From Calditrichia bacterium (GTDB lineage Bacteria > Calditrichota > Calditrichia > JAJRVZ01), in contig CAVZSQ010000015.1 of NCBI GenBank assembly GCA_963777955.1, positions 256,001 to 320,000 on the forward strand: DNA of 64,000 bases, read 5' to 3'. A program made the translations under genes and the position numbers. Under the pieces are notes generated by a model. The model had not been told where the DNA came from. It saw only the letters and a program-made list of their open reading frames with translations, and did not search any database. Of the stretch, positions 38,204-62,694 are shown piece by piece. Position 1 is the stretch's first letter; every line of letters begins with the position of its first letter.

Positions 38204-40886
38204 CTATTTTGCGGTACGGATTGCTTCCTGCGCGGCCGCTAAACGGGCAATCGGTACGCGGTAAGGAGAGCAACTTACATAATTCATACCCACGCGGTGA
38301 CAAAAACCAACTGAGCGGGGTTCACCGCCATGCTCGCCGCAGATACCGATCTTCAGCCCGGGCTTGGTCTCCCGCCCTTTCTTGACAGCCATTTCCACCA
38401 GCTGCCCGACACCGGTCTGATCGAGTGTCTGGAAAGGATCATCCGGCAGAACCTGCTTCTGTTCATATTCAGCCAGAAATTTACCCGCATCATCACGGGA
38501 GAAACCAAAAGTCATCTGGGTCAGATCGTTGGTACCAAAAGAAAAGAATTCAGCCTCCTCGGCTATCTCATTGGCAGTTAAAGCCGCCCGGGGTACTTCG
38601 ATCATGGTTCCAATCATGTAGTCAACCTTGACTTTAAACTCTTTCTGTACCTGTTCGGCAGTGTTCTTGACCAATGTTTTTTGATTGGTTAATTCTGCTT
38701 TGGTCCCCACCAGCGGAATCATGATTTCCGGATATACTTTGACTCCCTCCTTGGTCAACTGACAGGCTGCTTCCATGATTGCCCTGGCCTGCATCTCGGT
38801 AATTTCGGGATAGGTAATACCGAGGCGGCAGCCGCGGTGTCCCAGCATCGGATTGATCTCGTGCAAAGAAGCTACCTTCGCTTTCACTTCATCCACGGAT
38901 GTACCCAGTTCGTCAGCCATCTCTTTTTGGCTCTTGTCATCCTGCGGTAAAAATTCATGCAGAGGCGGATCCAGGGTACGGACGGTTACCGGCAGATCGT
39001 GCATCGCTTTGAAGATCCCGTAGAAATCCTCTCTTTGATAGGGCAATAATTTTGCCAGTGCTTTACGGCGGCCGGCTTCATCATTAGCCAGGATCATTTC
39101 ACGTACTGCTTTAATGCGGTCGCCTTCAAAGAACATATGCTCGGTACGGCAGAGTCCGATACCTTCGGCGCCGAATTTCCTGGCTACTTCTGCATCATGA
39201 GGCGTGTCGGCATTGGTGCGCACCTTCAGTTTACGGTATTGGTCCGCCCAGGACATCAATATACCAAATTTACCGGATAGTTCGGGTGTAACAGTTGGCA
39301 CTTTTCCTTCGATCACTTCACCGGTTGAACCATCCAGCGAGATCCAGTCCCCTTCTTTTAAGGTCAGTTTACCGACTTTTAAATGTTTCTTTTTATAATC
39401 AATGTTTAAAACTGAACAACCGGCCACGCAACAGGTTCCCATCCCGCGCGCCACAACTGCTGCATGGGAGGTCATCCCGCCGCGGGAAGTCAATATGCCT
39501 TCGGCTACGTTCATACCACCGATATCTTCCGGTGATGTTTCAATTCGCACCAGCAATACCTGCTCCCCTTTGGCTGCCCAGGCTTCCGCATCATCAGCGT
39601 GAAAAACAATGCGTCCGGTGGCAGCACCGGGTGAAGCCGGTAAACCTTTGGCAATAACATTCTTTTTCAGCTTTCGGATCGAAAGTGGGATGCAATAACT
39701 GGTCAATCTGGTTAGGATCGAGCCGCATTATCGCTGTCTTGGTATCGATTAATTTTTCATCGGCCATTTCGACGGCTATGCGCACTGCAGCAGCCGCAGT
39801 ACGCTTTCCGTTGCGGGTCTGCAACATCCACAGTTTGCCTTTTTGAATGGTAAACTCAATATCCTGCATGTCCCGGTAATGCTTTTCCAGCAGATTGTAG
39901 ATTCGATCCAGGTCCTTGTAGGCGGCCGGCATGATCGATTGCAATGTCTGTTGCTCTTTACTGGTTTTAGTAGATTCATTCACCGGCTGTGGATTACGGA
40001 TACCTGCTACCACATCTTCACCCTGAGCGTTTACCAGGTATTCACCGTAGAATTTTCTTTCACCGGTGGCCGGATCGCGCGTAAAGGCCACACCGGTAGC
40101 GCAATCTTCGCCCATATTGCCGTATACCATGGCCTGCACGTTAACAGCGGTACCCCAGTTAGCCGGGATATTATGTAATTTACGGTAGGTTAAAGCGCGT
40201 TGATTGTTCCAGGACTGAAACACGGCGCTGATGGCCCCCCACAATTGTTCCCAGGGATCAGTGGGGAAATCCCTGCCGGTATTTTTCTTGATGGCGGTTT
40301 TAAATAGTTGAACCAATTCTTTCAAATCAGCCGCAGAAAGTTCCGTGTCCAGTTTCACACCGCGTTTCTGTTTTAACTCATGGATGATAACCTCGAAAGG
40401 ATCCTCCTCTTCCTTTGACTGCGGTTTCATTCCCAGCACCACGTCTCCGTACATCTGAGCGAAGCGCCGGTAGGAGTCCCAGCCAAAACGTTCATTTTTT
40501 GAATTGGTTATCAGGCCCTGCACCGTTTTATCATTCAAACCAAGATTCAGCACGGTATCCATCATACCCGGCATGGAAGCCGGTGCTCCGGAACGCACCG
40601 AAACCAACAGCGGATTTTTAGGATCGCCGAATGTCGCACCCATGATCTTTTCAATATAGACCACGCCGGCCTTAACCTGATTTATAACCTCCTGGGCATA
40701 TTTGCCCTTGCTCTTGTAGAATTCATTGCAGATTTCAGTCGAAATGGTGAAGCCAGCCGGTACCGGGATGCCCAGATTAGCCATCTCAGCCAGATTCGCA
40801 CCTTTGCCGCCCAGCAAAAGTTTCATATCGGCTTTTCCTTCAGCTTTTCCATCTCCAAACTTGTAAACAGACTTAGCAGCGGACAT
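38204..40886 (-). CDS. ppdK: Pyruvate, phosphate dikinase (frameshift at A-run near 39665)
   Basis: [38 protein letters not shown] and GICGEHGG motifs. ATG at 40886 follows GGAGGA. Confidence 0.96.
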
Positions 40887-41150
40887 ATTTCCTCCAAACA
40901 GTTGTAATATTATCATCAGATAAATTTCATAAATAAACAACGAATTTATGACACCCTTCCAACATTATCAATATAATTTCGGCTATTTTTCCGGAACTTT
41001 TGAGTAAATTCAGGTTAATTTTTAAAATTTATTTAATTACGACGAATCTTATTCACGCCGAATGTCGTTAGTATAAAATATTATGGCATCTGTCTGAACT
41101 TATTACACAGGCGACCAGGTTATCAGTTATTATAAAGGAATAAAATTAAA

Positions 41151-44531: not shown

Positions 44532-45962
44532 CTAATTTTTAGGCAGGGAGATCGTATATTCGCAAAAATTTTCGCTGGTAAAAGTGATTTTTATTTTCCC
44601 GCCGTGCATTTTCAGTTTTTTCTTGACCAGATCCATGTCGCTGAATATTTCTTTACTGTATTCGGCCTCGGTTAAATTTGAGGAAGCCAGACTGGGCATA
44701 AACAGCAAGCGGATGACCTCGGAGCCAAGGTGATCACCGGGTAAGGCGTTGCCGATGGCTGAAATTTCAGTTTCACTCGAATCGATGGTCTTCTGTAATA
44801 AGCGCTCAATACGGATCAGCCGGCCGTCATGCCGTAATTTAAATCCGAAAATACGCCGGTCGGCATAAGTCTCGATTTCAATTATACCAGTCGGATTTTT
44901 ATTGGCCGACTTCCTCTCTTCGGGTTTTTCGATGCAATAAAAAACGGAAAAACGGATCAGCAGGATCAGGAATTCACGGACAATTTGCTGATGTGAATAC
45001 GGGATGATTGAATTATCAAAATTTTTATAATTGAACTGAATTTTCCTGCCCAGTTCTTTGGCCAGATTTTCCACCAGATTTTGCAGGGAGCGGATCATCA
45101 GACCGCCTTCGTATCTGCGGGTGGGACGCAACGAATTATTGAAATGTTTGAAGCGTTGCATCAATAATTTAACATCTTCCAGCATATGCCGGATCTCGCC
45201 CAGTTGAATAACTGCCGGCACAAAATCACTGCCCACAATTTCCGCACGGTCTTTAATTTTGCCTATTTCCACTTCAAAGTTTATCAACTTATCTTTGAAA
45301 AACTTAAGATTAAGCAGGGAAGCATTGCTTTTCAGGTGGTGGACAGTGCGTAAAATTTTATGCAGGATTATTTTGCAGTCCTCGGTCCCATGGGCATTTT
45401 TAAGTTCCGTGTCGATGTTATTCATCTCAATTTCGGTGACTTCAATGAATTCTTTGAGCAGGGGCGGTGCAATGCCCAGAATACAGACCAGCCATTCCAT
45501 TTGCTTCTCGGTCGTTTTTTCGATCTCTTCCAGTTTTTTGGTCAGGGAGATCTGCTTGGTCAGATCTTCAACCGTACAAATGAGTTTGGCAATAGCGCCC
45601 TCGGCCCGGATTCGTTTAAACTTGAAGGACAGGAATTTTGAAGAGGTCCATAAACCCCAGCGATTTTCAAATTGAAATTCGCTGAGATGCAGGGGATTTA
45701 ACTCATTGATTGTTTCTTCATCAAGATCGTCACGAAACATCAGATTAAGAAATTCCAGGGTATTGCTGATAATATTTTCAGGCACACGGTGTTCAAGCAG
45801 GGATATAAAATTCTGGCCGGCCGTGACTTTTTGATCGATAATAGATTCCAGGGAAGAAGAGAAATTTTCTTCGATTTCAAATTGCGGATTTAGAAAAAAA
45901 AGACCCTCATCGATCGCGAAGAGGATCAAATTTTTCTCACTGTCAAGTGGTATTGTGTGCAT
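44532..45962 (-). CDS. CheA-like PAS-like/Hpt protein with degenerate HATPase (pseudokinase)
   Basis: Hpt ILRTVHHLKSNASLL keeps the His. N-box reads LIRFSVFYCIE, G1 reads HDGRL and the G2 box is absent. Confidence 0.75.
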   Translation of the reverse strand: MHTIPLDSEKNLILFAIDEGLFFLNPQFEIEENFSSSLESIIDQKVTAGQNFISLLEHRVPENIISNTLEFLNLMFRDDLDEETINELNPLHLSEFQFENRWGLWTSSKFLSFKFKRIRAEGAIAKLICTVEDLTKQISLTKKLEEIEKTTEKQMEWLVCILGIAPPLLKEFIEVTEIEMNNIDTELKNAHGTEDCKIILHKILRTVHHLKSNASLLNLKFFKDKLINFEVEIGKIKDRAEIVGSDFVPAVIQLGEIRHMLEDVKLLMQRFKHFNNSLRPTRRYEGGLMIRSLQNLVENLAKELGRKIQFNYKNFDNSIIPYSHQQIVREFLILLIRFSVFYCIEKPEERKSANKNPTGIIEIETYADRRIFGFKLRHDGRLIRIERLLQKTIDSSETEISAIGNALPGDHLGSEVIRLLFMPSLASSNLTEAEYSKEIFSDMDLVKKKLKMHGGKIKITFTSENFCEYTISLPKN

Positions 45963-46120
45963 CCCTAAGTTCTCTTACGACAAAGCGCATCATCAATTAT
46001 TGGGATCAAAAAAATCGAGCTTATAATCCGCACCGGCACATGGATATAAACTCCCCCTGGCGATACCGTCGACCGGTCATTTATCAGCCGGCTGGTTTTC
46101 AGCCCCGGCTAAGACCCTTG

Positions 46121-46567
46121 CTATTCCAGGCACACCACCAGGAAAGATTTATGCTCATTCCAGTTAATTGGAATAACGAAAGACTGGATGTTGTCAGGCA
46201 GTTTGATGTCTTTGGCTTTCCCTTCCACAACTACAGGTACGGAAATCATAAAATCACTGCCGTAGGCCTGCCGGACGTTTCCGGAAATAGTATTGGCAAT
46301 CTCGCCAACCAGATCTTTAATGTCTTCCCTTTTCACCTCTTTGGCGCCCAGAATGATATGGGCAACTGATTTAAGCATTTCTTCGGTTGTCGTAATATAC
46401 ACGCTTCCTTTACGTTTCCCCGATATACCGATAATACCGGTATATTCAAGTACTACGGGAGATTCATCTTTAATGTAAGGAATACCCGTACTGGCTTTGC
46501 TGTTAGTCACCTCATCAAAATAATTCAAAGTACTATCGATAAAAAAATGAAGATCGGTCTCGTTCAT
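46121..46567 (-). CDS. cheX: CheX-family CheY-P phosphatase
   Basis: YTGIIGISG..KG and DLVGEIANTISGN (E-x2-N) and ISVPVVV motifs. Confidence 0.9.
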   Translation of the reverse strand: MNETDLHFFIDSTLNYFDEVTNSKASTGIPYIKDESPVVLEYTGIIGISGKRKGSVYITTTEEMLKSVAHIILGAKEVKREDIKDLVGEIANTISGNVRQAYGSDFMISVPVVVEGKAKDIKLPDNIQSFVIPINWNEHKSFLVVCLE

Positions 46568-46584
46568 TTCCAGTTCTCCTTGTT

Positions 46585-46959
46585 TTAATTTTGGGCAATA
46601 AGCCGTTCAAACGAGCTTCGCAGTTTCTCGGGTGTGAATGGTTTCGGCAAGAAACTTTTAGCACCTAGTTTAATCGCTTTAAGGCCGGTGGCCTTGTCGG
46701 ACAATGCAGTAATCACCATCACTTTGACGTCTTTCTTGATCTTCAGCATTTCTTCCAGTACGGTTAAGCCGTCTAATTCCGGCATGGTGATATCGAGGGT
46801 CACCACGTCAGGATCGGTTTGCCTGAAAATATCCAGTGCCACCTTCCCATCTTCGGCTTGGCCGACAACCTCGATATTAAAGTTCTTCAGATGTTTGTGG
46901 ATTGCTTCTCTGATGATTAGAGAATCATCTACAATCATCACTTTAACCTTGTCTTTCAT
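46585..46959 (-). CDS. CheY-like single-domain response regulator
   Basis: IVDDS, VVGQAEDG, TLDITMPELDG, ITAL and KPF motifs. Confidence 0.9.
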   Translation of the reverse strand: MKDKVKVMIVDDSLIIREAIHKHLKNFNIEVVGQAEDGKVALDIFRQTDPDVVTLDITMPELDGLTVLEEMLKIKKDVKVMVITALSDKATGLKAIKLGAKSFLPKPFTPEKLRSSFERLIAQN

Positions 46960-46981
46960 ACAACCTCCAGTTTTTATATCA

Positions 46982-47009
46982 TTATCGGATTATATCGAAT
47001 TTATCTTGA
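46982..47009 (-). promoter_or_regulatory. Possible sigma28 promoter for cheY-cheX
   Basis: TCAA-N16-TCCGATAA on the minus strand, 22 bp before the ATG. Confidence 0.45.
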
Positions 47010-47028
47010 ATAATTATGACATAAATTA

Positions 47029-49905
47029 CTATTGATTTCGGTATAAGGGTAAATTTATTTTAAATTCAAAATTCTTTCCCGGGATATTAGTAATTCTGAT
47101 CTGGCCATCGAATTTCTTTATCTTTTCCTTAATTGTATTCATACCGATTCCCTTCTTGGTAACCGGATCAAATTGTTCCGAAGAATAGATTCCCGGTTCA
47201 AAGATCAATTCGCCCAGTTGTGATTCGGTCCAGGAATCGATGGTGGCAGGCTCCCATTTGCCGAGTATTTTTGCCCGCTGAATCAATTTATCGAATTGCA
47301 GACCACAGCCGTCGTCCCGGTAAGAAAATTCGAAGGTATGCTCATTCAGCCGGGACTGAATTTCAATGATTCCACGCTCTGATTTTTTCCGGTTGCGCCG
47401 TTCCTCAGCCGTCTCAATACCATAGCGAATGGAATTGCGGGCCAGTTGCAGCGTAATATCTTTGACCAGGTTCTTATATAGATGGGGAATGGTTGTGCCA
47501 TCGAAATGATCATGGAGCAGGATCACCTGTTTATTCATGGCCGTGCTCATATTCTGAATGAAATTCTTAATGGAATTGAGCATTTTTTCACTCTCATAAC
47601 TGCGTTTGGGCCGGAAGTAACTTTGAATAGTACTCATTTTTTCAATCAGGGAACTGACCTCGCGCAGTGAATATTGAATTTCATTGAGGTGCAGGTTAAT
47701 GCCGATAAAGTCTTTACCCTGGATTTCTTTTTTATCCCGGACCTTGAGAATCAGGTCCTCGGTTTCATCGGCCATATTGGAAAAAAAGGCCAGATCAAGC
47801 AACCCGGAATTCTCTTTAATCGAGCGAACCGACTCGTGTATATTTTCTAAAACCTGGCGGTACACACTTTCATGACCACCCTTGCGCATAACATCGATTA
47901 TGGAGGCCATTTCCATTTGCGCACTGTCGATAAATTCCCGTAACAATTTTGGTTCGACATGCAAAATGCCGATCAACCATTCCAGTCGTTTTTTAGAATG
48001 AGATTCGACTTCGTTTAAACGTTTCTCCAGGCGTACCTGTTCGGTGATATCATCCACCGCTACAAGCACTTCATTAAACTGGCCGCCATCGATAATTCGT
48101 TTAAACTTAAACGACAGGCATTTCATTTCCGCCAATAATTGATTCTGATGGTTAAAATTCATCTCGATGTTGGTCAGCGGATTAAGTTCATTGATACTGA
48201 TCTCATCGACGCCAGGATCAAATATCAATTCTAAAAAACGGGTAACATCATCCAGTCGCTCATCCGAAATTTTATTGCGAAAGAGTTCCAGCAGGTTCTG
48301 CTGGGCTAAATCCCTTCTCTGAAAAATACCTTCCAGGGCCAGTGAGTATTGCGAACTTAATTCGTATTTTGAATTCAACAGAAACAATCCCTCTGCGGCA
48401 TTAGCCAGAATATCGTCGGTTTCGCTTTTCGCTCTCTGCAAACTATTGCGCGATTTGCGCAACTCGGTCTCTATTTCACGCCGTTCCGAAATTTCCTGCT
48501 GGGCTTGCTGGTATAATTTGGCATTTTCAATGGCCGTGGCTATCTGTGTACTCAGCAGGCAGGCATTATCGATATCGCTTTCTTTGAAAGCGTTTACCTG
48601 ATCACTCTGCATGTCCAGCACGCCGATAAGTTTTTTCCCGACGGTGATCGGTACGGCCAGTTCCGAACGGGTACATTCGCTTGCTTTTTTGATAAAATTT
48701 GGATTTTTCAGGACATTGTTGCTCACCTGGACTTTGAAGGATTGTGCGGCGGTCCCGACCATGCCCTCGCCTACCTGCAGGGTCAGATCTTTGGAAAAAT
48801 AGGTACTGTATCCACCGGCCAGCGCTTTTAAGCGCAAGGTCTTCTCATCGTTATCAAGCAGCAGTAACATAACCCCGTAAAAACTAAAAGCGTCACAAAC
48901 CGAGGTGACAATGTCCTTCAACAGGGTATCCAGATCCAGGGATCGGTTTATTTTCTGGCCGATTTCATTAAGCAACGTTGCCTGGCGCGCCCGATGAAGG
49001 GCATCTTCTTCTGCTTTCTTCCGTTTATGCTCCAATTCTTCAATTTTTCTGCTCTCCAGTGCATCAAAATAAAGCGCGGCTGCTCCAAGCAGAGCCATAT
49101 TCTCACGGTCCGATACTTTTATCTCCAGGTTCTGAACCGAACGCTGGAAGACAAAGGAGCGCAGACCCTGATTCAAACTGGTTTTGATCAATTGATAGGC
49201 CCTGGCCAGAGGACCGCCTAAAATAATGATCTCGGGATCAAGGGCACATATAATTGATTTTATAACATCACTGAGATTTAAGCCGAACTGTTTAAAATGT
49301 TCCCGGGCTTTTTTATCCCCTTTTACTGCCAGTTCATAAACCGTTTCGAAAGGTTCCTGCGCTATGTTTTTAAAATATTGATTGCTGCAGTAATATTCAA
49401 AATCATGATCACGATAAGGTATTTTCCCGAATTCACCCACCCCGCAATTGATCCCTGAATATAGTTTATTCTCGATGATGATTCCTGCACCCATCCCCTC
49501 ACCCAGGATCAAGCCTACTACATTTGAATATTTTTTGCCACTGCCAAAATGTTTTTCTCCGGCCGCAAAACAATTGGCATCATTATTTACGTACACCGGT
49601 ACTTTAAAATGTTTATGCAATTTGTCTTTCAGGTGCACTTCTTTCCAGGATGGAATACGGGTCACTTCGTAAACGATCCCTTTTTCCACATCAACAATAC
49701 TCGGTACGCCAATGCCGATACCGGCAACCTGCGCTCCGAAGATTGCCTCGATATGCATGATTAACTCATTGATAATCATGTCCTGGCTGGCTGCTGAAGA
49801 AATTTTATACTGATGAAAAGAATTCAATTCCTGGCCGCTGACCTTCCCCAGGCGCGCATAAATACCGTCTATATCGATGCCAATAATCTGTTTGTCTGTA
49901 TTCAT
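47029..49905 (-). CDS. ROK-GAF-PAS-like-Hpt(His-less)-HATPase CheA-like kinase
   Basis: GIGIGVPS, NNDANC and GEFG (ROK); GEGMVG and RSELAVPI (GAF); IHESVRSIKENSGLL (Hpt-like); RNSIRYGIE, DDGCG and GIGM. No CheW domain. Confidence 0.8.
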   Translation of the reverse strand: MNTDKQIIGIDIDGIYARLGKVSGQELNSFHQYKISSAASQDMIINELIMHIEAIFGAQVAGIGIGVPSIVDVEKGIVYEVTRIPSWKEVHLKDKLHKHFKVPVYVNNDANCFAAGEKHFGSGKKYSNVVGLILGEGMGAGIIIENKLYSGINCGVGEFGKIPYRDHDFEYYCSNQYFKNIAQEPFETVYELAVKGDKKAREHFKQFGLNLSDVIKSIICALDPEIIILGGPLARAYQLIKTSLNQGLRSFVFQRSVQNLEIKVSDRENMALLGAAALYFDALESRKIEELEHKRKKAEEDALHRARQATLLNEIGQKINRSLDLDTLLKDIVTSVCDAFSFYGVMLLLLDNDEKTLRLKALAGGYSTYFSKDLTLQVGEGMVGTAAQSFKVQVSNNVLKNPNFIKKASECTRSELAVPITVGKKLIGVLDMQSDQVNAFKESDIDNACLLSTQIATAIENAKLYQQAQQEISERREIETELRKSRNSLQRAKSETDDILANAAEGLFLLNSKYELSSQYSLALEGIFQRRDLAQQNLLELFRNKISDERLDDVTRFLELIFDPGVDEISINELNPLTNIEMNFNHQNQLLAEMKCLSFKFKRIIDGGQFNEVLVAVDDITEQVRLEKRLNEVESHSKKRLEWLIGILHVEPKLLREFIDSAQMEMASIIDVMRKGGHESVYRQVLENIHESVRSIKENSGLLDLAFFSNMADETEDLILKVRDKKEIQGKDFIGINLHLNEIQYSLREVSSLIEKMSTIQSYFRPKRSYESEKMLNSIKNFIQNMSTAMNKQVILLHDHFDGTTIPHLYKNLVKDITLQLARNSIRYGIETAEERRNRKKSERGIIEIQSRLNEHTFEFSYRDDGCGLQFDKLIQRAKILGKWEPATIDSWTESQLGELIFEPGIYSSEQFDPVTKKGIGMNTIKEKIKKFDGQIRITNIPGKNFEFKINLPLYRNQ

Positions 49906-49941
49906 CCTGACTCCATTACAAAATCTGTCAAATTTGAGTAT

Positions 49942-52900
49942 TTAAGATTCTGCTGCGGCAAACGTTTTTTCTTTCAAAGCTGCTTCTTTGGTCTTTTTGG
50001 TTAACGGAATTTTAATCGAAAATTCACAAAATTTTCCGGTTTTTGTATTTATCTTAATGCTTCCGCCCAGGCGATCAATTTTGTCTTTGACCAGATCCAT
50101 GCCTACGCCCCGCCCTGCGATCAGACCCGCTTTCTCCGAAGTCGATATTCCGGATTTATATATAATTTCAGCAACCTGCTGATTAGTCCAGCCATCAATT
50201 TCTTCGGCTGACCAGTGGCCGGAAGTCCTTGCTTTAGCGCGGAGTTTATCGAGTTGCAGACCGCGTCCATCGTCGCGGAAGGTGAAAGCGAAAGTCTTTT
50301 CATTTAAACTCATTTCGATCTCGATGCGGGCCTGCGGATCTTTTTTAAGTACAGACCGTTCCTCGGGATTTTCAATGCCGTGGTAAATGGCATTACGAAC
50401 CATCTGGATAATTATTTCACGCGTGGTCAGACGATAATGGTATGGTATATTCCCGGCATCAAATTTATCGTAAACCAGTTTTACCTTTTTACCCTGCTCC
50501 TGGGCCAGATTATTGATTAAATTCTCGATCGATTTGATAAATAACTCGCTTTCATAACTGCGTTTAGGCCGGAAATGAGAATGCACATTGCTTACGCGTT
50601 CGATCAGATTGTGCAATTCATCCAGGGTCCGCCGGATGTCCCCCAGACGCAACACCAGCGGCACAAAATCTGCGCCGCTTAATTTTGGTTTCTTTTTAAG
50701 ATCTTCGATGCGGTCTTCAAATTCATGCGCTTTTTCCACGAAAAATTTTAAATCCAGCAGAGAAGCATTGCCTTTGATGATGTGCATCGAACGATATACT
50801 TTTTCCAGGACCGGGATAAAATTGCTAACCTGTTCATCCTGCCGCAGGACTTTATCGATGTAGTCTAATTCCAGATAGGCACTTTCAGAGAATTCCTGCA
50901 AAAGTTTTGGCTCCACATGCAAAATGCTCAACAGCCAGTCCATTTGTTTTTTACTCATCGCCAGTGATTCTTCCAGTTTCCGGGCCAGCACAATCTGGTC
51001 GGAAAGATCGTTGACTGTAACGATCAGCTCGGAGACTTTATTTTCATCGTCGATTACCCGTTTGAATTTAAAGGCTAAATACTTTGATTTCAGCCAGACG
51101 TCTGTCTCATCCCTGAAATTAAATTCGATCTCACTCAGCGGATTGAGATCTTTCAGGGTATCTTCATCAACATCGGTCTTAAACATTAATTCCAGAAATT
51201 CCTGCAAATTGGTGAAGAGCTTTGTGGTCATTCTTTTTTCGACGATGTCCAGGAAATTTTTTCTGGCCGCACGTTTTTCTTCTAAAATTTTTTCAACTGC
51301 CAGCGAGTACTGCGAGCGTAATTTCAATTCAGGATCGATCAGGAAAATGCCCTCTTCCACATTACGCATAATATTATCGGTCTCTCGCTTCGAACGGCTC
51401 AGCAAACGATTTCTTTCTTTCAGTTCCTGGGTTCGCTCGGCAACCTGTGATTCCAGGAATATCCTTTGCCGGTCTACCCGTCTCATACTGAGCCGATAAA
51501 TACTATAGGCCAGGCCCAGGACAAAGAAGGCGGCCAATATTCTAAACCACCATCTTTGCCAGAATGGCGGGGCAATTATAATTTTAATGGACGTTCCGGC
51601 TCTGTTCCAGAGGCCATCACTATTCGTCCCGGCGACTTTAAAGACATATTCGCCGCCATCCAGGTTGGTATAGTTGGCATACCGGCGGTTACCACACTGG
51701 ATCCAATCGCGGTCAAATCCTTCCAGTTTATAGGCATAGATGTTTTTTTCGGGATTACTATAATCCAGGGCGGCAAATTCAAATGCGAAAAAATTCTTGC
51801 GGTAAGATAATTGTAATTCATGTATTTCTGAAATGGTAGAATCTAAACTTACTTCCTTATCAAAAATCTTAAACGAAGTAACGATCAGCGGAGGAACAAA
51901 CTGGTGTTCCTTTACCGCCTTCGGGTAGAAACGATTATAACCATTAATACCGCCAAAGAACAATTCACCTGACTTGCTTTTAAAGCAGGCCCCCGCGTTG
52001 AATTCATTACTCTGCAATCCGTCATTGGCATCAAAGTTCTTAAAAGTCAAAGAATCCGGAGCGAAGCGGGACAACCCGCGATTGGTACTGATCCATAAAT
52101 ACCCATCGTCATCCTCGGCCAATCCATAAATGGTACTGTGGGGTAATCCCTCACTTTCGGTAAAACGGGTAAAAATATTTTCGTCGGGATCAAACCGGTT
52201 TAAACCGCCGCCGAGCGTGCCGATCCACATTATTCCTTTACGATCCTGCAAGATTGCCGAAACACGTTCGTGGCTGAGTGAATTTTGATTATCCGGCTCG
52301 GTCATGTAACGATTAAAAGTTTTACTTACCGGATTGAATTTATTCAATCCTTTATAAGTTCCTATCCAGATAAATCCCTTTTTGTCTTCGTACAAGCATA
52401 AGATACGGTTATCGGTTAAACTGTTTTTATCGGCCGGATCATGGCGGTAATGACGAAAATTATTGCGGTCACTGATAAACTGATCCAATCCGGCCCAGGT
52501 GCCAACCCACATATTGCCCAGGTGATCCTGCAGCATGGCCCGGACACTATTGTCGCTGAGACCGGACAAGTCCTTGGGATTGTATTTGTAAACTTTCACT
52601 GAATTGCGGGCGGGATCATATTGACATAATCCGCCACCATTCGTACCGAACCAGATCATTCCGTATTGATCTTCATCGATCACCCTGATAAAATCATCAC
52701 TCAGTGCGTTCTTCTTGCGGGCCTCTGCGCTGAAGACAGTTAACTTATTGGTCCGTTTATCAAAACGGTTGACTCCCTTGCTGGTGCCCAGCCATAAATT
52801 TTCTCTGCGGTCAACCAGAATCGACCAGACCGTGTTATCGGTTAAACTGTTAGGATCTCCCGGTTCGTTTTTGTAGTGACCGAATCTTCTCTTCTTCCAG

Positions 52901-54015
52901 TCGAAATGATTTAATCCGGCGCCATAGGTGCCAAGCCAAATTGTACCTGATTTGTCGGCGTAGATACAACGCAGCAGGTCGCCGCTCAGGCTGTTATATT
53001 TGGCAGGATCGGAGAGCACCTGCCAGAATTTATTGCTGAGCGGATCCAGTATATTTAGTCCCAAATCAGTCGCCAGCCAGATCAATCCGGTTCGATCACA
53101 GAATATAGAATGGATCATGTTATTGTTCAGGCTGTTCTTGTCGTTTTTCCTGGCCAGGTAAGACTTAAATTTCTTGCGTTGTTTATCCAGTTTATTCAAG
53201 CCATGCTGTGTGCCAATCCACAGATTGTGCTGGGGATCTTCCAGAATGCTCAGAATATCATTGCTGCTCAGCGAATTGGCCTGGCGTGGATCGGCGATGT
53301 ATCGCCTGAACCGGAATTCTCCAGATTTAAGTTTCTGGGCAGAACACAAGCCACCCCCCTGCGTACCGATCCATATCACTCCAGATTTATCCTGATACAA
53401 TACAGTAATTTTCTCCGTGCCGAAACTGAAGGGATCCGATTCATCGTTCCAGAAATGGGTGATTTGCCTGGTTTGGATATTTAATAAATCTAATCCGCCG
53501 CCATCAGTACCGATCCACAGATAAATCGTACTGTCCACCAGCAGGGCTGAAACATAGTCGCTGCTGATCGTGTTTTCATTCTTTGGATCATAACGAAAAC
53601 ATTCAAATTTTTCGGTGAAGCGATTGAATCGATTAAGACCGCCGCCCAGCGTACCGATCCATAGATTTCCGGCAGAATCACCGGTCACTGCATTTATCCA
53701 GTTATCACTGAGCGAAAGACTATCCTGCTGCACATGTTTGAAAATCTTAAAATTGTAACCATCATAACGATTCAGGCCGTCCTGTGTTCCGAACCAAAGG
53801 AATCCCTGCTCGTCCTGATAAACATCTTCCACAGAACTTTGTGATAAACCCTGTTCGATAGAAATTCGTTTAAAATTCAGGTTATAATTTTGTGCAGCCA
53901 GTTCACCGAAAAATCCAGGACTGCTCAAAATTAAAAACAGACACAGATAATTGTGATACGATCTGACTTTAACAATCGCACAACGGATGGTTGATCCCCC
54001 GCTACTGCTAATCAT
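49942..54015 (-). CDS. Membrane sensor CheA-like (class III-type) histidine kinase: propeller/Y_Y_Y-TM-PAS-like-Hpt-HATPase
   Basis: Many WIGT..GL repeats, YTNLDGGEY, PPFWQRWWF TM, RSMHIIKGN Hpt, RNAIYHGIE, DDGRG and GRGVGMDLVK. Ends without a CheW domain. Confidence 0.88.
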   Translation of the reverse strand: MISSSGGSTIRCAIVKVRSYHNYLCLFLILSSPGFFGELAAQNYNLNFKRISIEQGLSQSSVEDVYQDEQGFLWFGTQDGLNRYDGYNFKIFKHVQQDSLSLSDNWINAVTGDSAGNLWIGTLGGGLNRFNRFTEKFECFRYDPKNENTISSDYVSALLVDSTIYLWIGTDGGGLDLLNIQTRQITHFWNDESDPFSFGTEKITVLYQDKSGVIWIGTQGGGLCSAQKLKSGEFRFRRYIADPRQANSLSSNDILSILEDPQHNLWIGTQHGLNKLDKQRKKFKSYLARKNDKNSLNNNMIHSIFCDRTGLIWLATDLGLNILDPLSNKFWQVLSDPAKYNSLSGDLLRCIYADKSGTIWLGTYGAGLNHFDWKKRRFGHYKNEPGDPNSLTDNTVWSILVDRRENLWLGTSKGVNRFDKRTNKLTVFSAEARKKNALSDDFIRVIDEDQYGMIWFGTNGGGLCQYDPARNSVKVYKYNPKDLSGLSDNSVRAMLQDHLGNMWVGTWAGLDQFISDRNNFRHYRHDPADKNSLTDNRILCLYEDKKGFIWIGTYKGLNKFNPVSKTFNRYMTEPDNQNSLSHERVSAILQDRKGIMWIGTLGGGLNRFDPDENIFTRFTESEGLPHSTIYGLAEDDDGYLWISTNRGLSRFAPDSLTFKNFDANDGLQSNEFNAGACFKSKSGELFFGGINGYNRFYPKAVKEHQFVPPLIVTSFKIFDKEVSLDSTISEIHELQLSYRKNFFAFEFAALDYSNPEKNIYAYKLEGFDRDWIQCGNRRYANYTNLDGGEYVFKVAGTNSDGLWNRAGTSIKIIIAPPFWQRWWFRILAAFFVLGLAYSIYRLSMRRVDRQRIFLESQVAERTQELKERNRLLSRSKRETDNIMRNVEEGIFLIDPELKLRSQYSLAVEKILEEKRAARKNFLDIVEKRMTTKLFTNLQEFLELMFKTDVDEDTLKDLNPLSEIEFNFRDETDVWLKSKYLAFKFKRVIDDENKVSELIVTVNDLSDQIVLARKLEESLAMSKKQMDWLLSILHVEPKLLQEFSESAYLELDYIDKVLRQDEQVSNFIPVLEKVYRSMHIIKGNASLLDLKFFVEKAHEFEDRIEDLKKKPKLSGADFVPLVLRLGDIRRTLDELHNLIERVSNVHSHFRPKRSYESELFIKSIENLINNLAQEQGKKVKLVYDKFDAGNIPYHYRLTTREIIIQMVRNAIYHGIENPEERSVLKKDPQARIEIEMSLNEKTFAFTFRDDGRGLQLDKLRAKARTSGHWSAEEIDGWTNQQVAEIIYKSGISTSEKAGLIAGRGVGMDLVKDKIDRLGGSIKINTKTGKFCEFSIKIPLTKKTKEAALKEKTFAAAES

Positions 54016-54130
54016 ATCCTCATCCTGTACTTTTCAGTTATAAACATTTTCATTGATAATTCGCAAAACTCACATTGCAGGACATATTTCTATCATAAAT
54101 ACTTACTTAAGTCCTAAATGTTTAAATTCA

Positions 54131-54157
54131 TTATCGTCAAAAAACAGAGTTACTTTA
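54131..54157 (-). promoter_or_regulatory. Sigma28 (FliA)-like promoter
   Basis: TAAA-N15-GACGATAA on the minus strand versus consensus TAAA-N15-GCCGATAA. Confidence 0.65.
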
Positions 54158-54228
54158 TTGAGTACGGTAAAGGAAGAGTAATAAGTATGAGCTGAGGTTA
54201 AAAACGGATTATATTTTACTTAGCACAC

Positions 54229-54246
54229 CCGGCAGACTATTGCCGG
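54229..54246 (-). terminator. Short GC hairpin just after the cheY stop
   Basis: CCGGCA-GACTAT-TGCCGG; no clear U-tract. Confidence 0.35.
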
Positions 54247-54247
54247 A

Positions 54248-54622
54248 TCATTTTGCAATAAGGCGTTCGAAGGCATCTTTTAATTTTTGCGGGCCAAATG
54301 GCTTGGTAATGTAACTTTTTGCGCCCAGACGGAGTGCTTTGAGACCGGTGGCTTTATCGGCTAAGGCAGTAATAACAACAACCTGTACATCCTTATCCAG
54401 CCGGATCATTTCATCCAGGACATCAAAGCCATCGAGTCCCGGCATGGTTATATCGAGAGTAACTATCTCCGGACTATGCTTTTTAAACATCTCCAGAGCC
54501 GAGTTACCATCGGTGGCGGTTCCGATGATCTTAACGTTATAATTCTCCAGGAATTTAGAGATCGCTTTGCGAACCACCAACGAATCGTCAACGATGAGTA
54601 ATTTTTTTTGATTTTTATCCAT
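54248..54622 (-). CDS. CheY-like single-domain response regulator (paralogue of 46585..46959)
   Basis: IVDDS, TLDITMPGLDG, ITALADKATGLKALRLGAKS and KPF motifs. Confidence 0.9.
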   Translation of the reverse strand: MDKNQKKLLIVDDSLVVRKAISKFLENYNVKIIGTATDGNSALEMFKKHSPEIVTLDITMPGLDGFDVLDEMIRLDKDVQVVVITALADKATGLKALRLGAKSYITKPFGPQKLKDAFERLIAK

Positions 54623-54712: not shown

Positions 54713-57700
54713 TTATTCAAAATTGAAATTTATCAGCCAGCGGAACTTTTGATGGTCCTTATTGACAGCCAGGTTGCCGATCCACAAAGGAAAATCCATC
54801 CCGATGCTCTTTAAATTGAATAAAAAATCGGCCCACTTCCCCATTGGCAGCTGTAAACCGAATCCGGCTGATTTTTGAAATTGGCCCAGGGCAGGCATGG
54901 ATCCGGACCAGACCGAACCGATATCGGCAAATACATAAGTCGTTAAATCCCGCAGCATGAACAGGCTGCTATAGCGTAATGGATTAGGAATCACGATATC
55001 CAGATTGCCGGCAATTATTTTATTGTCCAGGATTGGAGTCGGACTGCCGCTCAGCGAAGCACCGCGCACATTACCGCCACCTGCTTTAAATAAATGACCA
55101 TTCTTACGCCAGGGATAAGGCAGACTACCCTTGCTGCGGTAGAATGGTTCGTTGAATTCATCCCAGCCGTTTGCACCACTTAAGTTAAACTGGAATTGTG
55201 CCGGAACTCTTCCCTTGCCGTAGCCGGTATAGCAGCGCAGCACTGCTTGCCAGTCTGAACGTGCATTCGAGAAAATCCGGCTGGCCTCCAGATAAATCTG
55301 AGCAAAGCCGTAAGCGCTGCCTAAAAACGATGTATGGGTAAAAACCGTCACTTCGTATTTTTTCCTCCAACTGTGGCGGTAGTTGGCTGCGGTTTTAAAA
55401 TTGAGGAATAGAGTAGTAACATCATTTTCATCCCAGGCTGCCATTAAATAGGATGGATTAAAAACGTGATGGCCGGTTAATCCTAATCCATACTCGAGCG
55501 ACTTAAGATAATTCTGCGACAGTTGACCGGTCAATCCGCAACTGCCCCCCTCCCGGCCGTCCAGACGGTACAGGCTTAGATCAAACCGGACGTTATTTCC
55601 GATAGCATAAAATGGAGTACGGTAAGAAACTTCCGCGTCGACCGCCGGATGGGCCGTTTTATACCATACCCGGGCGTTCAGTTTATGATCGATGTTCAGG
55701 TAACTCCCATTTAATTTGATACCTGCCCTGGCCTGATCATAGTCATTGTAAAAAAATAACGGCCAGATTTCCCAGATATATTTATCTAAAGGCGGAGCAT
55801 AACTCTGGTAACGCATCCAGTGAAATTCCTGTTCGGGCAGGCAGGAGGAAGTATTATTCAAACTGTTTATATCCGTCAAACTCAGTGTTGAATCAAGTTT
55901 GACCATTCTGATTCCGTCCGACAGGGTCAAATTGGCCGTGTATTTTTTTTGACTGAAATGCCAGTAAGGTAAAGTGATCCGGTTGCCGGCCGGTTCGCTG
56001 CTGTTATCGACCGGTACATGAAAACGTTGTACGGTGCCATCTTTTAAATATACGCTGAAATCAACCGGCATGAAGATTTCGGCTTTTCTATCCAGATTAA
56101 CCTGGCATTTATAAAAGCGCCGGCCATCAATTTTTTCCCAATGCCCCCGGTAGCCCTGGACCGCATAATCCAAGTTTCCGGCTGGTGCTCAACCACTGTT
56201 CAAAAAACCAGTCCAGATCGCGGTTTGCCGTTTTTTCCATCACTGTAATGAAATCCCGGGTGTAAGGATGGTGAAAACACCATTGATTAAAATATTCCTG
56301 CAGGCCCAGGGAGAACAAACTATCACCCAGGGTATATTCCAGCATGAATAAAACCATGGCCATTTTAGAATATTGCAAAATGTAGATATCATCCCCCAGA
56401 TAATCAGAAGGCAAGGCGATAGGATCCCGGTCGAATCCGGATTTACTGTAACGCAGGTACTGCCAAGCCGTGCTCCTGCGGTCGTCATCGCGGTAGGCGG
56501 TTTTCTGTTCAAACCAGCCGGATCTGATCTTCGCTAAATTATCTTTCACTCCGAAGATTGCTTCCATCGCTTTAATTTCAGCAAAGGTGGCAAATCCTTC
56601 ATCCAGCCAGCCTTGCTCGGTCTGGTTATTAGCCAGCAGGCCGTAAAACCAGAAATGAGCCATTTCATGCAGCAGTAAGGCGCGGAACTCACCCGGTTCA
56701 TACTCCGGATTGATATAATCGTTAAGCAATACGATCTGCGGATATTCAATACCGCCGGCCCGGACATACGTATCAGCAATAGTTAATTGTTGATAAGGAT
56801 AATGCCCGAAAGTATCATTAAAATACTGCAGACCCCGCACCGCCCATTCGTTAACCTGTTTCCAGGATTCGCGGTTATAATCCAGTGCCAGGACATTGAT
56901 GGTGATCCCCTGCCATTCCGACTGCATCAATACATAGGCCGGATCGGCAGTCCAGGCAAAATCATGCACATTTTTTGCTTCATAGTACCATTGAACCGGC
57001 CCGGGCGTCTCATATTCTTCTGACTGTTGCCCTTGACTGCTGCTACTGTCCTTTGCGGAGTTCGCTGCGGAACTACTGAGCAAATTGCCGGTAGCACCTA
57101 CTGTAAATCCCGCCGGGACATTTATAGTGACCAGGAAATCCCCCCATTCCTGATAAAATTCGTTATCCAGATGCTGGTGCAGATGCCATCCGTCCCGATC
57201 ATATACCACCGGGGTGACATACCAATTGCCGATGTCGTAATGATTGCCGAGATAGCCATAACGATCACTGGCCGGTGGAATCATTACGGTAAATTTAAAG
57301 TGCCAGCGAACCGATTCACCCGGAGCAAGCGGATGGTGCAGTTGTGTTTTCAGCAGAGTCTGATCGATACTGAAATTTTTCTGCAATGAGTCATTTTCCT
57401 GTATGGTATGGATGGTAATTCCGCCCAGATCGGCTTTAAGGTCGGGCAGGAATAAAGAACCGGCACGGTATTTATTCATATATAAATGGAAGTACAGCAC
57501 CCGCAGGGTATCAGCCGAATGGTTGGTATAAAGTAATGTTTCGTCGATATTCAGATGGTTCAGATTGATATCGAGTTTAACATCCATGGTGTAGTGCACG
57601 TATTGCTGGAAATACTGTGTTTGATCCGGAGTGGACAGCAAATCCATCCGGGGATTGCAGCAGAACTGCAACTGTACTAAATAGAAGAATTAAATTATTC

Positions 57701-57714
57701 CCCGCCATGTTCAT
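54713..57714 (-). CDS. M1-family metallopeptidase with C-terminal Omp85-like barrel (frameshifts near 57635 and 56174)
   Basis: VHDFAW, GGIEYP and HEMAH...WLDEG motifs; C-terminal GGGNVRG, VFADIGSVW and KSAGFGL. A signal peptide lies in the upstream frame. Confidence 0.8.
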
Positions 57715-58900
57715 GCTTTTCGATATCATGTGTTAAACCCTCTGCCCGGCTGATGGATTTACGGCCGAATTTCTTTTTTACCAGGTCTTCTATAACATCC
57801 AGCCGGTCATTATCCTGCAGTCCGCATTCAAATATGTTCATTTGCCTGCCCAGGTCATCGCTGAATCCCGAGATGCCCACACCGATCAATCGCACTTTCC
57901 TGCCTTGCTGATAATTATCAATAAATAATTCTTTCACTACCGAAAAAATTTTTTCAGTATTGGCTGTGACACCCGGGATGGTCTGGACACGGGTAATAGT
58001 ATCAAAACTCTGATAACGTAATTTAAGCTGGATGGTCCTGCCGGTTAATCCTTTCTGACGCAAACGGTAGGCCACTTTTTCAGCCAGTTGAAACAGTGTA
58101 CGCTGCAGCATATCCAGATCGGTGATGTCCTCGCCAAAAGTGACTTCATTACTCACCGACTTCACTTCATGTCCGGAAATTACCGGGCGGTCGTCCTGAC
58201 CGTGTGCCAGGGCATAAAAATGCTCCCCCAGTTTACCGAAATATTGTTCGAGCAGATCGGCAGGAAATTGACGCAGGTCGCCGATGGTATAGATGCCCAG
58301 ATGATTAAGTTTGGCAATAGTTTTTTTACCGGCACCCCAGATGTAGACCACGGCCAGGGGATCCAGGAATTCCTGGATCCCTTGGCCGGCTTCGACGATC
58401 ACCAATCCATCAGGTTTCCTGAGATCCGAAGCAATCTTGGCAATGAATTTATTGGGTGCTATACCGACTGAAGCGGTCAGATCCTGGTTGCGCAAGATCC
58501 GTATTTTAAGTTCCCGGCCCAGGTTTTCCACGTCCCCGAAAAGATGGAAACTTCCGGTAATGTCCAGGAATGCTTCGTCGATCGACAACGGTTCAACCTG
58601 GTCGGTGAATTCATATAATAATTCGAAGATTTCAGCGCTGACCTGTGAATACAGGTGCCCGTTGGGTGGAACATAAATCCCCTGCGGACATAATTTGTAA
58701 GCCTGGGATATCGGCATGGCGGAATGAACACCGTACCGGCGTGCTTCATAGGAACAGGTGGAGACCACTCCCCGGCCTTTACCCTGTCTGGGATCAGCAC
58801 CGACAATCAGAGGTTTATTTTTGTACTGTGGATGTTCTCTTTGCTCGATGGCGGCAAAAAATGCATCCATATCGACATGCAGAATATACCGGACAGCCAC
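57695..58900 (-). CDS. dinB: DNA polymerase IV
   Basis: HVDMDAFFA, SYEARRYGV, SIDEAFLD and KIASDLRKPDG motifs. Confidence 0.95.
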   Translation of the reverse strand: MAVRYILHVDMDAFFAAIEQREHPQYKNKPLIVGADPRQGKGRGVVSTCSYEARRYGVHSAMPISQAYKLCPQGIYVPPNGHLYSQVSAEIFELLYEFTDQVEPLSIDEAFLDITGSFHLFGDVENLGRELKIRILRNQDLTASVGIAPNKFIAKIASDLRKPDGLVIVEAGQGIQEFLDPLAVVYIWGAGKKTIAKLNHLGIYTIGDLRQFPADLLEQYFGKLGEHFYALAHGQDDRPVISGHEVKSVSNEVTFGEDITDLDMLQRTLFQLAEKVAYRLRQKGLTGRTIQLKLRYQSFDTITRVQTIPGVTANTEKIFSVVKELFIDNYQQGRKVRLIGVGISGFSDDLGRQMNIFECGLQDNDRLDVIEDLVKKKFGRKSISRAEGLTHDIEKHEHGGE

Positions 58901-62076: not shown

Positions 62077-62694
62077 ATGAAAAAATTAACCAAACGTCAG
62101 GAGCAGATTCTGCAGATTATAGCGGATTCCGTGGAATTGAACGGTTATCCGCCCACTTATCAGCAATTATGCGATAAATTGGGTATTCATTCGAAAAATG
62201 GAGTTAAAAAACATGTTGATGCCCTGGTCCGCAAGGGTTATATCGAAAAGGATTCCTCTGCACGGGGGCTGCGTATCCTGGCTGCAGATTATAAACCTAA
62301 AGGAAAGAGCGATACCGACGTCCCGTTACTGGGCCGGGTGGCTGCAGGAACCCCTGTTTTTGCCGAAGAAAACGTCGAACGGTACATACCTGTTCCCCGC
62401 CACCTGATTAAAACCGAAGGACGCTATTATGCCTTGAAAGTCCGGGGGGACAGTATGATCAATGCCGGTATCTACGAAAATGACCTGGTACTGGTGCGGG
62501 CGATCAACATAGCCACCCATAATGATATTGTTGTTGCCCTGATCAATGGCGAGGTGACGGTCAAACGACTGGTCAGCGAAGGTGAACAGGTCTATTTGCG
62601 GGCAGAAAATCCGGCCTATTCTGACATTTATCCTCAGGAAAGCTGGTCCATTCAGGGCAAAGTAATCGGTCTGATCCGCGAGTATTTCAACTAA
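62077..62694 (+). CDS. lexA: SOS repressor LexA
   Basis: LTKRQ..IL and GYPPT wHTH; VAAG cleavage site; GDSM Ser and TVKR Lys. Confidence 0.96.
   Translation: MKKLTKRQEQILQIIADSVELNGYPPTYQQLCDKLGIHSKNGVKKHVDALVRKGYIEKDSSARGLRILAADYKPKGKSDTDVPLLGRVAAGTPVFAEENVERYIPVPRHLIKTEGRYYALKVRGDSMINAGIYENDLVLVRAINIATHNDIVVALINGEVTVKRLVSEGEQVYLRAENPAYSDIYPQESWSIQGKVIGLIREYFN

Follow-up and report, generated by a model that had tools for sequence, protein, structure and literature searches.

A putative class III histidine kinase locus of a Calditrichia bacterium with a conserved predicted pseudokinase downstream of cheX

Class III histidine kinases (HKIII) are said to join a sensor, an Hpt domain and a CheA-type HATPase without a CheW domain, a definition that reportedly goes back to Wuichet and Zhulin in 2010 and Adebali et al. 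in 2017. Their loci, again reportedly as laid out by Adebali et al. in 2017, combine the kinase with a single-domain receiver and CheX and contain no CheW, CheR or CheB, and a small soluble chemoreceptor is said to be frequent in them without being obligatory. To our knowledge, only genomic evidence exists for HKIII systems, and a role in type IV pili has been proposed for them because of their co-occurrence with pilT. We analyzed a six-gene locus of a Calditrichia bacterium (phylum Calditrichota), located in a 64,000-nucleotide stretch of assembly GCA_963777955.1 (contig CAVZSQ010000015.1, positions 256,001 to 320,000 of the forward strand); the whole of this stretch is called the window. Judged by its sequence and by the definition above, the locus is an HKIII system, in which the sensor kinase K1 is an HKIII member and two related proteins, K2 and K3, are degenerate members. 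Our preferred reading, with a rough probability of 0.5, is that the locus forms an HKIII hub in which K1 would phosphorylate the receivers Y1 and Y2, CheX would reset them and K3, a predicted pseudokinase encoded next to cheX, would act as a non-catalytic, CheX-binding regulator. The genome (G000) is 92% complete, and the comparison set comprised 86 genomes of the phylum; G, C and L numbers below denote genomes, contigs and loci.

An earlier note on this DNA, made from the sequence without database searches, had described six co-oriented genes, and six open reading frames (ORFs) were found at 44532..54622 of the window, all on the minus strand, with intergenic gaps of 232, 36, 69, 17 and 158 bp in the reading order Y1-K1-K2-Y2-CheX-K3 (Table 1). 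The kinase module that it had seen in the three large proteins was recovered as an alignment of their cores across ~470 aa at pairwise identities of 42, 37 and 32%, with the quoted motifs present. No Pfam match to CheW, H-kinase_dim or HisKA was obtained in K1-K3 or in 45/45 related cores, and the same scan detected CheW and H-kinase_dim in the true CheA of this genome; the C termini of K1-K3 fall just past the HATPase. The note's statement that the cluster holds no MCP, CheW, CheR or CheB gene was likewise borne out within the locus, and the sole CheW and MCP matches in the genome sit on a different contig. Its PAS-like region stood in part: the call is based on the secondary structure of the model and on whole-length fold matches to LOV kinases, with weak PAS_9 matches in 2/45 relatives' cores, but no Pfam match was found in K1-K3 themselves. 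Promoter and terminator scans returned numbers no higher than chance (25 found versus 23.4 expected and 11 versus 12.4, respectively).

Table 1. Genes of the putative HKIII locus, in reading order (positions are those of the window)
Gene	Product	Length (aa)	Position	Strand	Pfam result
Y1	Single-domain CheY-like receiver	124	54248..54622	-	Response_reg only
K1	Complete sensor kinase	1357	49942..54015	-	Reg_prop + Y_Y_Y + Hpt + HATPase_c
K2	ROK-GAF-PAS-like-Hpt-HATPase protein	958	47029..49905	-	ROK + GAF + HATPase_c
Y2	Single-domain CheY-like receiver (core operon gene)	124	46585..46959	-	Response_reg only
cheX	CheX phosphatase	148	46121..46567	-	PF13690, E 3e-22
K3	Sensor-less predicted pseudokinase	476	44532..45962	-	Hpt only, E 0.001, below cut-off

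K1 consists of an N-terminal hydrophobic segment, Reg_prop propellers, Y_Y_Y, a predicted membrane helix (~826-842), the PAS-like region, Hpt and HATPase, in this order. The N, G1 and G2 boxes are established ATP-binding elements, and K1 has the whole catalytic set: the Hpt His (His1078, which aligns with CheA His48), the N box, DDGRG (G1) and GRGVG (G2). It is the only one of K1-K3 to retain every catalytic residue. The Hpt match of K1 in Pfam was below threshold (E 0.0015), the top NCBIfam matches of the kinases were CheA models, every one under its cut-off, and the PDB matches of K1 were CheA only, save one designed protein. The earlier note had proposed an Hpt domain and a CheA-type HATPase in all three large proteins; the folds were confirmed for K1-K3, but the full catalytic residues were confined to K1, and the view of the three as working kinases did not survive, K2 having Arg at the position of the Hpt His and K3 having lost its N, G1 and G2 residues.

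K1 aligned collinearly with a Burkholderia kinase across 476 aa (24% identity, E 6e-32). When the K1 core was run by tblastn against plasmids and chromids, eight of 568 records covered at least 80% of it, all of them from Burkholderiaceae, with the gene order kinase–small MCP–CheX-like–receiver at their loci; from this architecture, we infer that they are the published HKIII. In a quick HATPase-region tree of 60 rows, just two of them class I, the Calditrichota kinases (support 98) were sister to the kinases of Betaproteobacteria (94) within CheA, and the cores of the K1-K3 family lay apart from both class I rows, in agreement with the class III-type system named in the earlier note. Comparable architectures were also seen in Myxococcota, Spirochaetota, Bdellovibrionota and others.

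The likeness to HKIII lies in the sensor–PAS-like–Hpt–CheA-type HATPase order without CheW or a dimerization domain, and in the collinearity with, and sister position to, the Burkholderia/Ralstonia/Caballeronia kinases. Of the three proteins, only K1 has a complete set of Hpt His and CheA-type HATPase. K1, K2 and the paralogues have their own N-terminal sensors (Reg_prop/Y_Y_Y in K1, ROK/GAF in K2, and GAF, PAS, receiver or propeller in the paralogues), CheW and the P3 dimerization domain are absent, and a receiver and CheX are encoded in the locus. Neither the P3 and P5/CheW domains and the CheW and MCP genes of class II chemosensory systems nor the HisKA/DHp domain and class I-type HATPase of class I kinases were found there. 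The core CheA domains, according to PMC10782961, are P1, P3, P4 and P5, and the locus resembles class II CheA in its P1-like Hpt and P4-like HATPase folds, CheY-like receivers and CheX, but it lacks P3, P5/CheW, MCP, CheR and CheB and has its sensors fused to the kinases. It also departs from proteobacterial HKIII. The Calditrichota loci have no small soluble MCP (0/55 loci, L060-L114, matched MCP or CheW references; such an MCP is present in L057-L059) and carry a conserved sensor-less predicted pseudokinase after cheX, kinase paralogues reach up to 10 per genome, some of the genomes gave no pilT-family match, and one input is ROK-derived. CheX and CheY of the betaproteobacterial systems are divergent, whereas the locus has a canonical CheX and CheY proteins of the Thermotoga/archaeal type; the Burkholderia CheX-like protein gave no BLAST alignment to this CheX and a weak match to Pfam CheX (E 0.009).

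The receptor-less kinase–receiver–CheX arrangement emphasized in the earlier note is present, but it is reportedly the published HKIII design and is not new here. Apparently new are the sensor-less pseudokinase tied to cheX, the kinase expansion without detectable motors and the ROK-derived input. The literature search found no HKIII in Calditrichota and no HKIII pseudokinase, with the limit that the text and supplements of the key HKIII papers may already list pseudo-HKIII or pilT-less cases; HKIII is absent from the accessible parts of PMC9239204 and PMC8396549.

K3 comprises a PAS-like region (9-135), an Hpt fold (163-269) and a CheA P4 fold (283-476), and has no sensor besides the PAS-like domain that it shares with the others. 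Its predicted model (pLDDT 77, pTM 0.43, with a low-confidence lid region) matched CheA P1 over residues 163-269 (Z 13.9, rmsd 2.5, 104 aligned) and CheA P4 over residues 283-476 (Z 17.2, rmsd 3.8, 165 aligned). Since ~14 residues lie between the end of the Hpt (~269) and the start of P4 (~283), the model leaves no space for P2/P3. K3 retains the Hpt His208, and its ATP site is altered throughout: the N-box Asn is replaced by Phe338, the G1 Asp by His378, and the G2 glycines are gone. We scored 97 K3 homologues, one long intact kinase having been removed from the 98 returned. The G1 Asp-to-His change was found in 93/97, the G2 GxG was kept in none of the 93 scorable sequences, the N-box Asn was kept in 14/97, and no sequence was fully intact (0/97); the Hpt His was kept in 51 and replaced in 46, by Tyr in 20. 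The family carries its own HDG and FTSE motifs, and the dead HATPase is its most conserved part, with 37/176 columns at least 90% conserved and a mean column conservation of 0.65, against 0.56 for the Hpt, the lowest of the domains.

When 1.84 billion representatives were searched with a profile, 1,106 matched at E 1e-30 or better. Among the best 150 of these (50%-cluster representatives), 126 of the 146 scorable sequences were intact, and all nine with the Asp-to-His change were sensor-less proteins of 490-510 aa. In the quick tree, 19 K3 rows formed a single branch (support 100) nested in the Calditrichota kinases (98), and K3-type genes occur in six of the eight families of the phylum. Recent decay of K3 was rejected, because the loss is conserved across the family and the K3 clade is monophyletic. 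These results indicate that K3 is a conserved predicted pseudokinase of single origin, and very probably it would bind no ATP.

The neighbourhood was compared in 20 related loci, which were those fetched as the best K3 matches. K3 lies directly downstream of cheX in 20/20, the order Y2–cheX–K3 is found in 19 and kinase–Y2–cheX–K3 in 18, so that the gene order of the locus, for which the earlier note had suggested this comparison, recurs in its relatives; Y1, an accessory gene, is upstream in five of the 20 and a second kinase is present in three. The CheY and CheX calls of the note also held, the active sites of both receivers (D12, D57, T85 and K107 in Y1; D11, D56, T84 and K106 in Y2) and the E89-x-x-N92 site of CheX being intact. 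Y1 is 59% identical to Y2, and the top PDB matches of the receivers were CheY proteins. CheX, the sole one found in this genome, is the most conserved operon member (79% mean column identity, 17 sequences), and its conserved part includes helix 1, outside the ExxN site. Six helix-1 markers (E3, D5, H7, F8, D11 and Y16) were chosen from the K3-linked sequences, and all six were present in 18/18 K3-linked CheX, three of which are just 48-60% identical elsewhere. Among the K3-less loci, where CheX is 44-63% identical elsewhere, 7/9 had zero to two of the six, and a tenth CheX row, whose genome carries K3 at another place, had all six. In these alignments, CheX helix 1 co-varies with the presence of K3. 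In one locus (L066, G054:C9), a single kinase and receiver are followed by two cheX genes in tandem.

Because of the helix-1 pattern, K3 and CheX were folded together. The complex prediction scored 0.56, versus 0.00 for the best of three controls, which lends weak support to a contact; the runs agreed in at least 82% of contacts, and the partner pLDDT was at least 80. In the benchmark of this score, the mark was reached by 116/157 solved complexes and 2/215 mismatched pairs, and the range of 0.60 or under held 18/157 solved complexes and both of the mismatched pairs.

Nine copies of the kinase module were found in this genome, with propeller, GAF, PAS or receiver inputs. Six of them lie outside the locus and have sensors that differ from those of the locus kinases; the core is intact in five of the six, one of which has its propeller part on a separate ORF, and the remaining copy is interrupted within the HATPase. 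With six further paralogues elsewhere, a single CheX and only Y1 and Y2 as close receivers, the self-contained pathway of the earlier note is probably not what the locus forms. Among the 86 genomes, the kinase family was found in 46 and CheX and the receiver in 38 each, and all 38 CheX-bearing genomes had the kinase family; kinase–receiver–cheX alone occurs in other genomes (L060-L067). Dispersed kinases in other genomes often bring their own receiver copy, which supports the kinase–receiver pairing, and we infer that the dispersed kinases converge on this locus. In three loci (L040, L049 and L073, in G035, G017 and G018), the propeller kinase of the operon stops before the HATPase, in genomes that hold seven to 10 paralogues; by their sequences, these are further non-catalytic sensor copies. 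A run of a hybrid class I kinase, a CheR-family gene or more receivers, and a receiver-fused HKIII was seen at G000:C15:7302-12931 (L124), where the HKIII copy is split inside the HATPase, and also at L130 and L133, which suggests a class I phosphorelay feeding an HKIII hub.

The earlier note had proposed a search for motor or pilus genes, and FliM/N, flagellin and the pilT family (searched by TIGR01420, control positive in 13/14) gave no match in this 92% complete genome, the controls being positive. A pattern scan detected no secretion-ATPase or pilin motif in it, and GldM gave no match here and none in its controls either. Since no motor markers were found, the "CheY" label is not to be read as motor control. 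Seven of the 38 CheX-bearing genomes, from two families and six of them at least 91% complete, had neither FliM/N nor a pilT-family match. The lineage thereby breaks the reported correlation of HKIII with pilT, HKIII kinases being described as always accompanied by a type IV pilus marker in PMC6501615. All 11 genomes with neither marker carry the kinase family, with a median of five copies and at least three in 10 of them (four of the 11 are <80% complete), against 19 of the 51 FliM/N genomes, with a median of zero and at least three copies in one; related genomes are not independent in these counts. The operon likely controls something other than flagellar or type IV pilus motors, and the target of the phosphorylated receivers in this genome is likely neither the flagellar switch nor the type IV pilus. 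No conserved output gene flanks the operon in the inspected loci. As for receiver fusions that might hint at an output, PyrF–receiver in one genus is the sole case: there, the orotidine monophosphate decarboxylase (PyrF) domain encoded in a pyrimidine operon carries a Y2-type receiver (55-57% identical) at its C terminus (L126:817-1968 and L127:4365-5495).

K2 has Arg694 in place of the phospho-acceptor His of its Hpt, and its HATPase retains N and G1 and has a partly altered G2. The same His-to-Arg change is found in two close relatives (L075 and L080), and as these are independent, an assembly error behind the loss, considered because this genome has several split genes, was ruled out. ROK-fused kinases outside the genus retain the Hpt His (6/6), and in L048 it is the propeller kinase that has lost it instead. 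In ROK proteins, DxGGT serves ATP binding and NDAN forms the sugar site. DxGGT is missing from K2 and from all 8/8 fused ROK domains, which retain NNDAN, and is present in two stand-alone ROKs of this genome, one of which, bearing DLGGT, is 43% identical to the ROK domain of K2. This pattern suggests that the fused ROK domains would bind sugar without catalysis. The ROK sugar sensors of the Mlc/NagC type resemble the K2 ROK in the retained NDAN and missing DxGGT; unlike them, the K2 domain is fused to a GAF–HKIII module and not to a DNA-binding domain, and its closest match is a stand-alone ROK kinase from this genome. No ROK–kinase fusion was found in the literature search, so that ROK as a kinase input, if true, would be a sensor type not found there.

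In the hub that we propose, K1 and the dispersed intact paralogues would very probably autophosphorylate their Hpt His upon their own sensor input and pass the phosphate to Y2/Y1, and it is just as probable that CheX would dephosphorylate Y2/Y1. K3 would hold or gate CheX via CheX helix 1, setting the reset rate of a many-input signal in a pathway without methylation enzymes, a step to which we give somewhat less than an even chance. K2 might sense sugar through its non-phosphorylating ROK domain and, having no His of its own, would work only via the Hpt of a partner, a role that we put forward tentatively.

Several points weigh against this proposal. Kinase–receiver–CheX runs in several genomes in which no K3 was found, so K3 is dispensable there. 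The kinase tree was a quick search with just two class I rows. The helix-1 markers were picked from K3-linked rows, two K3-less CheX depart from the pattern (5/6 markers in L060 and 4/6 in one L066 copy), and a single family supplies six of the nine K3-less CheX, which leaves about three independent contrasts. A score in the class of 0.56 is more often wrong than right unless the pair is likely beforehand, and the fold, which covered K3 with CheX and gave no interface, would at best hint at specificity for K3. The absence calls for motor markers come from assemblies 73-94% complete in two families; pilT-family matches occur in 31/38 and FliM/N in 15/38 of the CheX-bearing genomes, and in those that have either, the system may control a motor.

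The alternative that survives best, which we nonetheless consider improbable, makes K3 the output: the dead kinase would read a phosphorylated receiver by its Hpt face and signal through a change of shape, much as DivL of Caulobacter, a pseudo-histidine kinase that binds DivK~P according to PMC4211667. Like DivL, K3 keeps a PAS-containing kinase fold without catalysis beside a single-domain receiver, and part of its family has exchanged the Hpt His for Tyr. The fold of the K3 Hpt resembles that of CheA3 P1 in its complex with CheY6 (Z 12.9, rmsd 2.5, 105 aligned), the His is replaced in nearly half of the homologues, the highest conservation lies in the dead HATPase, and the loci share no other output gene. 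However, the Hpt is the least conserved domain of K3, which is odd for a receiver-docking face, and the K3-less systems would require another output. DivL, moreover, has a DHp domain, belongs to class I and has been shown to bind DivK~P, whereas K3 is of the Hpt/CheA type, has lost its ATP-pocket residues and has a predicted partner; the resemblance is a functional analogy at most.

K3 could also pair with the active kinases by its coiled-coil/PAS region and, as an inhibitory or tuning subunit common to them, set their basal activity without any contact with CheX. This we consider quite unlikely, as it leaves unexplained the position of K3 directly after cheX in 20/20 loci, the CheX helix-1 pattern and the K3-specific HDG and FTSE motifs, and no CheA dimerization domain is present for such pairing. 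In its favor, K3 arose within the clade of active kinases in the quick tree and shares PAS and signaling-helix residues with them, and some of the large kinases, too, are His-less or truncated (L040, L048 and L049).

In this genus, K2 and K3 might together form a split kinase, with K2 contributing ATP binding and sugar input and K3 the His. CheA3 and CheA4 of Cereibacter (Rhodobacter) sphaeroides are such complementary split kinases in PMC10782961, and by analogy K3 has an Hpt His and a dead kinase domain and K2 a kinase domain, with N and G1 retained, without the acceptor His. His208 is followed at +3 by Lys, a combination that K3 has in common with its three closest homologues and one other of the 97. 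CheA3/CheA4, however, carry CheW domains, work on receptor arrays and control the flagellum, none of which is shared by K2/K3. The complementarity is confined to one genus, hence to one lineage and one event; ROK-fused kinases beyond it keep their His, the G2 box of K2 is altered, and K3 is retained in many loci that have neither K2 nor this His, so a split kinase cannot be the general role of K3. As an account of this genus it appears very unlikely. The literal reading of the earlier note, in which all three large proteins are active sensor kinases and the two CheY proteins that they feed control a flagellar or pilus motor, is hardly credible, given that K2 and K3 lack catalytic residues, that no FliM/N, flagellin, pilT-family or pilin match was found in this genome and that kinase copies peak in the genomes with neither motor (median 5 in 11, versus 0 in 51 with FliM/N), even though the best PDB matches of the receivers are CheY, HKIII is reported always alongside a pilus marker (PMC6501615) and pilT-family matches are common in CheX-bearing genomes (31/38).

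If the K3 family is what it appears to be, the small group of known bacterial pseudo-histidine kinases would gain a second scaffold, that of a conserved Hpt/CheA-type pseudokinase, and if K3 binds CheX, there would be a route to regulate the CheX phosphatase and tune a methylation-free pathway. The K1 core, Y1, Y2, CheX and K3 are a compact set of soluble proteins with which the biochemistry of HKIII could be studied for the first time. On a wider and rather unlikely view, Calditrichota would have rebuilt, with neither receptors nor methylation, a chemotaxis-like network of the type "many sensors, one hub", in which up to 10 kinases feed one or two CheY-like proteins and a dead CheA-like protein on CheX, in the place of the soluble chemoreceptor, gates the reset or carries the output. 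Such a network would be largest where flagella and type IV pili have both been lost, and if its size does peak in those lineages, it would drive an unrecognized behavior or machine.

The single MCP of this genome belongs to a ParA-linked CheA cluster separate from the operon (L125, G000:C13:178252-187817), which contains a ParA-like ATPase, a receiver protein, CheW, the MCP and a multi-Hpt CheA-receiver split into ORFs of 850 and 754 aa. At least one MCP was found in 84/86 genomes, mostly exactly one in the non-flagellated genomes of the phylum, and this ParA-linked chemosensory cluster may be near-universal in the phylum, even without motors. At G000:C13:122384-126191, a small GTPase (MglA-like by eye), a Roadblock/MglB gene, a second roadblock-like ORF and a receiver form a candidate polarity module in a genome without pilus or flagellar markers.

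Upstream of the operon, the window contains a DinB-like polymerase (by eye) at 57695-58900 on the minus strand and LexA at 62077-62694 on the plus strand. In L035 and L039 the operon likewise has the polymerase as a neighbour, probably by plain synteny. At 54713-57671 on the minus strand, a 514-aa M1 peptidase ORF overlaps a 486-aa ORF without a Pfam match; relatives have a single fused ORF of 996 aa (L134), and the two are probably one split gene. A further gene, at 38204-40940 on the minus strand, which we take by eye to be pyruvate phosphate dikinase, is split into overlapping ORFs of 448 and 500 aa; the like position in a close relative (L099 and L100) holds one ORF of 891 aa, and the split may be an assembly indel.

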